Shown piece after piece: positions 21,423 through 21,506 of a stretch of DNA of 64,000 nucleotides (its first letter is position 1; the number at the start of each line of letters is the position of its first letter). Source of the stretch: Escherichia coli (GTDB lineage Bacteria > Pseudomonadota > Gammaproteobacteria > Enterobacterales > Enterobacteriaceae). The notes beneath the pieces are model-generated. The model saw only the letters and a list, made by a program, of their open reading frames with translations. It made no database searches and had not been told where the DNA came from. The position numbers and the translations under genes were made by a program. The DNA is taken from assembly GCF_001677475.2 (NCBI RefSeq), contig NZ_CP015229.1, one strand, 5' to 3'.

Positions 21423-21506
21423 GGCGGATGCGGCGTAAACGCCTTATCCGCCCTACATGTGCAATCCCGAAGGCCGGATAAAACGCGACATGCGTCGCAT
21501 CCGGCA
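21423..21506. repeat. Pair of REP elements (BIME-like) between eutH and eutG
   Basis: ggcggatgcggcgtaaacgccttatccgccctaca and ggccggataaaacgcgacatgcgtcgcatccggca, both REP-consensus palindromes. Confidence 0.7.

Follow-up and report, generated by a model that had tools for sequence, protein, structure and literature searches.

A single BIME-2-type REP unit between eutG and eutH in the Escherichia coli eut operon

The spacer between eutG and eutH in the eut operon of an Escherichia coli genome (contig NZ_CP015229.1) contains two REP elements that form a bona fide BIME-2-type unit, a z2-like and a y-like REP arranged tail-to-tail. The 64,000-nt stretch of DNA that was analysed, hereafter the window, carries the single-unit allele of a BIME array that varies in copy number with a 100-bp period. 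Elements of this kind are already known, the setting is the classical one, and K-12 has a longer form of the REP pair. Intercistronic REPs were first described in such a setting, and the variation of BIME-2 copy number between strains has been published; a full-text literature search found no paper discussing REPs in the eutG-eutH spacer. We assign a probability of roughly 0.55 to the reading that this unit lowers the yield of EutG and protects the upstream mRNA. The identity and anatomy of the unit are observed directly, and both functional steps are suggested by its position and by what is known of the REP family. The value of the analysis is mainly negative, in that the element is ordinary, has no IHF site and is present in Salmonella too. 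For those who engineer or compare eut operons, it is of use that K-12, BL21, O157 and the window all differ at this spacer.

The eut operon of the window

The window contains an intact 17-gene operon, eutSPQTDMNEJGHABCLKR (14204-28989, minus strand), without the CPZ-55 prophage. All 17 Eut products match NCBIfam equivalog or subfamily models. The operon is flanked upstream by maeB, and hemF lies beyond its last gene, eutR, which encodes the activator (14204-15256, minus strand). The ethanol dehydrogenase gene eutG (21508-22695, minus strand; NF011998 EutG, 884.6 bits, residues 1-395 of 395), with its TAA stop codon at 21510-21508, adjoins the REPs on the upstream side. The first cistron downstream of them is eutH, for the ethanolamine permease or facilitator (20165-21391, minus strand; NF011665 EutH, 872 bits, residues 1-408 of 408). 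The initial annotation had described a BIME-like pair within a long polycistronic operon, which we confirm, with the gene order corrected: the transcript runs from eutG through the REPs to eutH. Only two gaps in the operon exceed 50 nt, the eutG-eutH spacer and the eutM-eutN gap (25235-25340, minus strand, 106 nt, no REP). Small open reading frames that overlap the spacer are mechanical products in other frames of eutG, had no supporting evidence and were discarded.

Two observations concern the wider region. Positions 15000-30000 of the window reach only about 97.5% identity over 15 kb with their nearest match among 5426 complete E. coli genomes, and the window is probably from a divergent Escherichia lineage and not from mainstream E. 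coli. Separately, many database proteins named EutG (17 entries) are 618-672 residues long and carry added FtsA/PilM-type domains. They look like EutJ-EutG fusions, plausibly produced by frameshifts or miscalls at the 11-nt overlap of eutJ and eutG (22685-22695 in the window).

Anatomy and folding of the REP pair

The eutG-eutH spacer is exactly 116 nt long (21392-21507), and the interval 21423-21506 within it frames exactly two REPs, both extragenic. The stop-proximal element, REP-A (21506-21469, minus strand), is z2-like and is read head-first on the mRNA as TGCCGGATGCGACGCATGTCGCGTTTTATCCGGCCTTC on the minus strand. The second element, REP-B (21423-21456, plus strand), is y-like, with the canonical reading GGCGGATGCGGCGTAAACGCCTTATCCGCCCTAC on the plus strand; on the mRNA it is inverted and appears GTAG-first as GTAGGGCGGATAAGGCGTTTACGCCGCATCCGCC (21456-21423). 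A 12-nt linker (21457-21468, minus strand; GGGATTGCACAT on the mRNA) joins the two REP feet tail-to-tail, and its sequence is kept across Escherichia units. The remainder of the spacer is the eutH leader (21392-21422, minus strand; AAUAAAUAACAACUAACAGGGAGUAAAGGCG), 31 nt that are A/U-rich and unstructured, being unpaired or only weakly paired in folds of the spacer. A Shine-Dalgarno sequence, GGGAG, lies at 21404-21400, 8 nt 5' of the eutH AUG. On the mRNA the order is the eutG TAA, one A, REP-A, the linker, inverted REP-B and the eutH leader.

Both REPs are imperfect palindromes with inverted-repeat arms. The RNA hairpin of REP-A spans 21505-21473, placing its first paired base (21505) 2 nt past the eutG stop codon, and that of REP-B spans 21452-21423. 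Each hairpin has a predicted folding energy of -20.9 kcal/mol (z = -4.33 for REP-A and -3.83 for REP-B), and none of 200 shuffled sequences was as stable as either. The entire 116-nt spacer folds at -49.9 kcal/mol (z = -2.6). Sequence match, palindromic arms and stable folds together show that the REP pair previously proposed at 21423-21506 is real.

Compared with known elements, REP-B shares 30 of 34 positions with the y REP found between malE and malF in K-12. REP-A matches the malE-malF z2 REP at 31 of 37 positions and another REP of the window, at 34845, at 33 of 37. It has G rather than T at consensus position 4, and its foot reads CTTC in place of the usual CTAC, which most other alleles of REP-A possess; REP-B has GTAG. 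The loop CATGTC and the CTTC foot of REP-A are both unusual among the alleles seen.

A strict REP pattern, for which zero chance matches are expected in shuffles of the window, misses both eutG-eutH REPs, since the loop differs by 1 nt and the base of the stem is altered. REPs were located across the 64-kb window by blastn-short, which found about five others, at 1050, 34845, 46154 (with 46201) and 50844, and showed eutG-eutH to be the only REP-bearing gap of the eut operon. The REP density of the window seems typical of E. coli. K-12 annotation is reported to list a REP element at eutG-eutH. The RefSeq K-12 feature table has no REP feature there, but it contains no REPs anywhere; since the malE-malF REPs are likewise unlisted, the missing entry is uninformative.

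Assignment to the BIME-2 class

BIME-2 elements consist of z2 and y REPs in inverse orientation with short linkers, and their tandem copy number differs between strains (PMC3333891). BIME-1 elements combine z1 and y REPs with a long L linker that often contains an IHF site (PMC3333891). The eutG-eutH locus has the composition and arrangement of the former and, like BIME-2, it varies in the number of tandem units, of which the window holds one. Assignment to BIME-1 (RIP) was rejected, as the spacer has no z1 REP, no long L linker but one of 12 nt, and no IHF consensus. Against Rfam, the only family to score was the REP325-derived naRNA4 (RF02564), with 39.9 bits at 21413-21453 (minus strand), below its gathering threshold of 59.5.

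The GTAG tetranucleotide of the foot (CTAC on the other strand) is conserved in REPs and is needed for recognition by the REP-associated transposase (PMC3333891). In the literature, REP-like dispersed repeats are held to be spread and amplified by this transposase together with recombination. Since CTTC replaces the CTAC foot, the complement of GTAG, the copy of REP-A in the window may no longer be a transposase substrate.

Two further kinds of element were sought in the spacer and rejected. A scan of 21392-21507 detected no terminator-like site, and neither REP is followed by a T run, which argues against an intrinsic terminator. A promoter scan found no sigma-70-like promoter within the spacer, and we discarded an internal promoter for eutH.

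Unit number varies among Escherichia

In K-12 MG1655 the spacer is 216 nt long and consists of the window-type unit twice, with an exact period of 100 bp. Across E. coli we found spacers of 99, 116, 216, 316, 416 and 515 bp, and one of 169 bp with an unrelated repeat; the 316-bp form occurs in a BL21 derivative and others. The locus accordingly has one unit in the window, two in K-12, three to five in other E. coli and up to six in other Escherichia. A census of alleles in an evenly spaced 60-row sample from 5427 E. coli records gave the 116-bp allele in 20, the 216-bp allele in 23, the 99-bp allele in 4, the 169-bp allele in 3 and longer alleles in 9, with the locus absent in 1.

Two of the E. 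coli alleles depart from whole-unit variation. The 99-bp allele, of O157:H7 type, has a 17-bp deletion that removes the 5' arm of the stop-proximal REP-A. It retains one slightly degenerate y REP, as seen in E. coli 65COLEC (positions 443-541 of locus L002); three O157:H7 hits have a spacer of equal length. The 169-bp allele has no REP and carries instead an unrelated G-rich dispersed repeat, of which a full-length copy is present at eutG-eutH in 384 of 5426 complete E. coli genomes (about 7%). In E. coli EC581 the spacer with this repeat occupies positions 443-611 of locus L003. The repeat, with the sequence CCCCTCGCCCCTTTGGGGAGAGGGTTAGGGTGAGGGG..., is about 140 bp long and unannotated, and the median genome has copies of it in 6 places. 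It has no match in Rfam and no copy in the 64-kb window.

The spacers of other Escherichia measure 116 bp (E. whittamii), 126 bp (E. albertii), 315, 474 and 578 bp. The 126-bp spacer of E. albertii is the window-type REP pair with a 10-bp duplication of linker sequence. In two loci (L008 and L048) the stop-proximal hairpin is truncated. The eutH leader is common to every Escherichia allele irrespective of REP number, with one base different in L008. Since E. albertii and E. whittamii carry the REP pair and spacer lengths vary, the pair is old within the genus, with a unit number that drifts; the sequences place a BIME in the eutG-eutH spacer since before the split of E. coli and E. albertii.

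We collected 30 distinct units, which keep the two-hairpin pairing in 97.9% of cells. Compensatory change among them amounts to 2 pairs in 4 cells. As the units are 95% identical and show two compensatory pairs only, covariation says little on why the palindromes are kept, and the compensatory changes could reflect constraints at the DNA level, such as transposase recognition or gene conversion, rather than RNA function.

The same junction in other genera

For relatives, one locus per species was retrieved via EutH, and Salmonella and E. albertii were retrieved via EutG homologues. The spacer has 27-48 nt and no REP in several Citrobacter, Yokenella, Hafnia, Buttiauxella, Morganella and Pluralibacter. 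Among these, several Citrobacter keep the same operon with a spacer of 27 nt and no hairpin. One REP is present in S. enterica subsp. diarizonae, S. enterica subsp. salamae and C. sedlakii. The spacer of S. enterica subsp. enterica is 119 nt long and has two REPs in the opposite, head-to-head order, and a 123-nt version of this opposite-order spacer occurs in Pseudocitrobacter, C. koseri and C. gillenii. Klebsiella-type REPs are found in spacers of 170-216 nt. The number of REPs at eutG-eutH ranges from 0 to about 12 among relatives that have this operon. The repeated, independent occupation of this junction by REPs may mean that it is selected, or that the site is merely permissive.

The initial annotation had suggested that Salmonella eut may lack the REPs and could serve as a comparison; this did not hold. 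With two REPs in subsp. enterica and one each in diarizonae and salamae, Salmonella does not separate loci with REPs from loci without. For that purpose the 27-nt spacers of Citrobacter would serve better as a natural control.

Several side observations were made at this junction. The 119-nt spacer of S. enterica subsp. enterica (positions 1889-2007 of locus L068) agrees in layout, and almost entirely in sequence, with the spacer of the C. youngae/werkmanii/portucalensis group (six loci), and the other Salmonella subspecies have different, single-REP spacers. The shared spacer hints at recombination or common ancestry of the segment across genera. The 45-48 nt spacers of Buttiauxella, Morganella and Pluralibacter gergoviae contain no REPs and a small GCCUG-N4-5-CAGGC hairpin; in each of the twelve loci the spacer lies just upstream of position 2001. 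The loop of the hairpin is variable and its stem almost unchanged (a single G-U wobble, in B. noackiae); a hairpin at the eutG-eutH junction may predate the REPs. Finally, in one metagenome-assembled genome labelled Citrobacter sp. HRGM_Genome_0066, the eutG-eutH region shows 96.3% identity to the window and includes a 116-bp REP spacer of Escherichia type. For true Citrobacter loci the identity is about 83-86%, and the Citrobacter label or the binning of this genome is probably wrong.

Proposed action on mRNA and translation

In RNA, REP hairpins hinder degradation by ribonucleases and are possible transcription attenuators (PMC12306157). REPs located at most 15 nt from a stop codon are reported to stall the terminating ribosome and to depress upstream gene expression (Liang et al. 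2015, as summarized in PMC12306157). REP-A, at 2 nt past the stop codon, lies within the 15-nt distance of this class.

We propose that, on transcription of the operon, the pair would fold into two stable hairpins, with the eutG stop codon on one side and, on the other, the eutH leader, which is unstructured and translated independently. Since the first hairpin starts 2 nt after the stop codon, ribosomes finishing eutG would meet it before terminating, which would modestly lower the yield of EutG. The A/U-rich eutH leader, with its own ribosome-binding site, is a plausible entry site for an endonuclease. After endonucleolytic cleavage in the leader, the hairpins would block 3' exonucleases and the eutS-to-eutG message would live longer, as at malE-malF. 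Polarity on eutHABCLKR would be mild at most. The stabilization of upstream mRNA suggested by the initial annotation is in keeping with the documented role of REP hairpins as 3'-exonuclease barriers (PMC12306157).

The one quantitative dataset found, published label-free proteomics of the E. coli K-12 strain W3110 with ethanolamine and B12, gave relative levels of 100 for EutQ, 96 for EutM, 39 for EutL, 37 for EutB, 27 for EutE, 24 for EutC, 11 for EutS, 10 for EutD, 8 for EutK, 7 for EutG, 7 for EutP and 1 for EutN (PMC11334477). The low level of EutG (7, compared with 27 for EutE) is compatible with a stop-proximal REP effect and is no proof of it; it could equally reflect start codon context or protein turnover.

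In the window, the eutM-eutN gap contains a terminator-like hairpin that is not a REP (25333-25308; GTGTGACGTCGATTCGGGCGTCACGC, followed by the T-rich TCTCTCATTT on the sense strand). Given this hairpin and the W3110 levels of 96 for EutM and 1 for EutN, the main internal step-down of the operon looks to be at eutM-eutN and not at the REP junction. The available protein data thus put the large step in eut expression away from the REPs (PMC11334477).

Several results speak against an important role for the unit. Several Escherichia alleles have a deleted or truncated proximal hairpin, about 7% of E. coli have another repeat in place of the BIME, and several relatives with an apparently intact eutG-eutH junction lack the BIME altogether. 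REP-A of the window, moreover, has the CTTC foot. Since several Citrobacter keep the operon with a 27-nt spacer and no hairpin, any effect of the REPs is dispensable.

Alternative explanations

It is possible, if on balance doubtful, that the unit is a neutral passenger, selfish or hitch-hiking REP DNA that a permissive untranslated gap tolerates and that leaves eut expression essentially unaffected. The heavy turnover of spacer content would be expected of such DNA, ranging from no REP through one, two in the opposite order and Klebsiella-type REPs to between 2 and about 12 in Escherichia, as would the loss of the 5' arm of REP-A in the 99-bp allele, the replacement of the pair in about 7% of E. 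coli and the abundance of downstream Eut proteins in W3110. Position argues the other way: there are two hairpins of -21 kcal/mol, the first of them 2 nt past a stop codon, where REPs act in other operons (PMC12306157). REPs have moreover been gained repeatedly and independently at this junction and the 106-nt eutM-eutN gap has none, and taxa without REPs often show a small conserved hairpin at eutG-eutH.

A role at the DNA level is unlikely as the main explanation, and it would be compatible with the RNA effects proposed above rather than exclusive of them. Here the y REP would serve as a gyrase site or as an HU or cruciform contact, managing supercoiling or the nucleoid in the middle of a 15-kb, strongly induced operon. 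That REPs can be gyrase sites, as the initial annotation noted, is documented for the y REPs of BIME-2: gyrase cleavage is over-represented in BIME-2 elements, mostly at y REPs, and is independent of transcription, although only a subset of the elements is cleaved (PMC6379681). In the searched text and supplements of this Topo-seq study (PMC6379681) the eut locus is not mentioned, and neither these nor the RepRanger supplements list eutG or eutH. HU enters through REP325, a six-unit y/z2 array that yields HU-binding naRNAs (PMC4550694). The naRNA4 family is the only Rfam family scoring at the spacer, but it does so below its gathering score (39.9 against 59.5), and the window has a single unit.

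Less likely still is a transcriptional attenuator, in which partial Rho-dependent termination at the BIME would hold eutHABCLKR below eutS-G, a form of the ratio tuning envisaged in the initial annotation. REPs have been described as possible transcriptional attenuators (PMC12306157), and the untranslated gap reaches 578 nt in some strains. The spacer of the window, however, has no terminator-like site; with 34 G against 28 C it lacks the C-richness usual for Rho loading sites, and it is mostly base-paired. In W3110, whose spacer we assume to be the 216-bp, four-REP K-12 allele, EutB, EutC and EutL (37, 24 and 39) are not below EutE, EutD and EutG (27, 10 and 7), which argues against strong attenuation. 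Essential lyase genes also lie downstream. That REP number varies between 0 and about 12 among relatives sharing the operon argues further against a finely set ratio.

We consider it very improbable that the array acts as a heritable rheostat, in which unit number would alter the amount of transcript or stable mRNA reaching eutR. EutR is required and is encoded by the last eut gene (PMC3045373). Since eutR is transcribed through the eutG-eutH spacer, unit number could alter its supply. Through one to six units, replacement or partial deletion, such a rheostat would give different E. coli lineages different gains or thresholds of ethanolamine autoinduction.

An IHF-binding BIME-1 (RIP/RIB) element, suggested by nothing beyond the general remark in the initial annotation that REPs can bind IHF, is refuted by the sequence, since IHF binding is a feature of BIME-1 elements and their long L linker (PMC3333891) and the spacer instead has z2-like and y-like REPs, a 12-nt linker and, in 21392-21507, no match to the IHF consensus WATCAANNNNTTR with at most one mismatch.

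Comparison with known REP systems

The eutG-eutH unit resembles BIME-1 (RIP) elements in having two inverted REPs in an intergenic region. It resembles the stop-proximal REPs of Liang, Rudd and Deutscher (2015), exemplified by nrdA-nrdB and described here as summarized in PMC12306157, in that the hairpin of REP-A lies within 15 nt of the upstream stop codon. This likeness is one of position alone, and some Escherichia alleles are without the proximal hairpin.

The BIME-2 arrays REP325 (yjdM-yjdN) and sucB-sucC share with the eutG-eutH locus the z2 and y units, the short linkers and the variable number of tandem copies. The window differs from them in its single unit, in the G for T at position 4 of REP-A and in the CTTC foot.

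The malE-malF spacer is likewise internal to an operon, separating a stop codon from a next gene that is translated independently, and its one y and one z2 REP stand tail-to-tail, joined by a linker of some 15 nt. There the y REP comes first, starting 11 nt past the stop codon, then the z2 REP and a third, partial REP; in the eut spacer the z2-like REP comes first, starting 2 nt past the stop codon, and the y-like REP second. In experiments by Newbury et al. in 1987, the malE-malF REPs reportedly stabilized the upstream malE mRNA.
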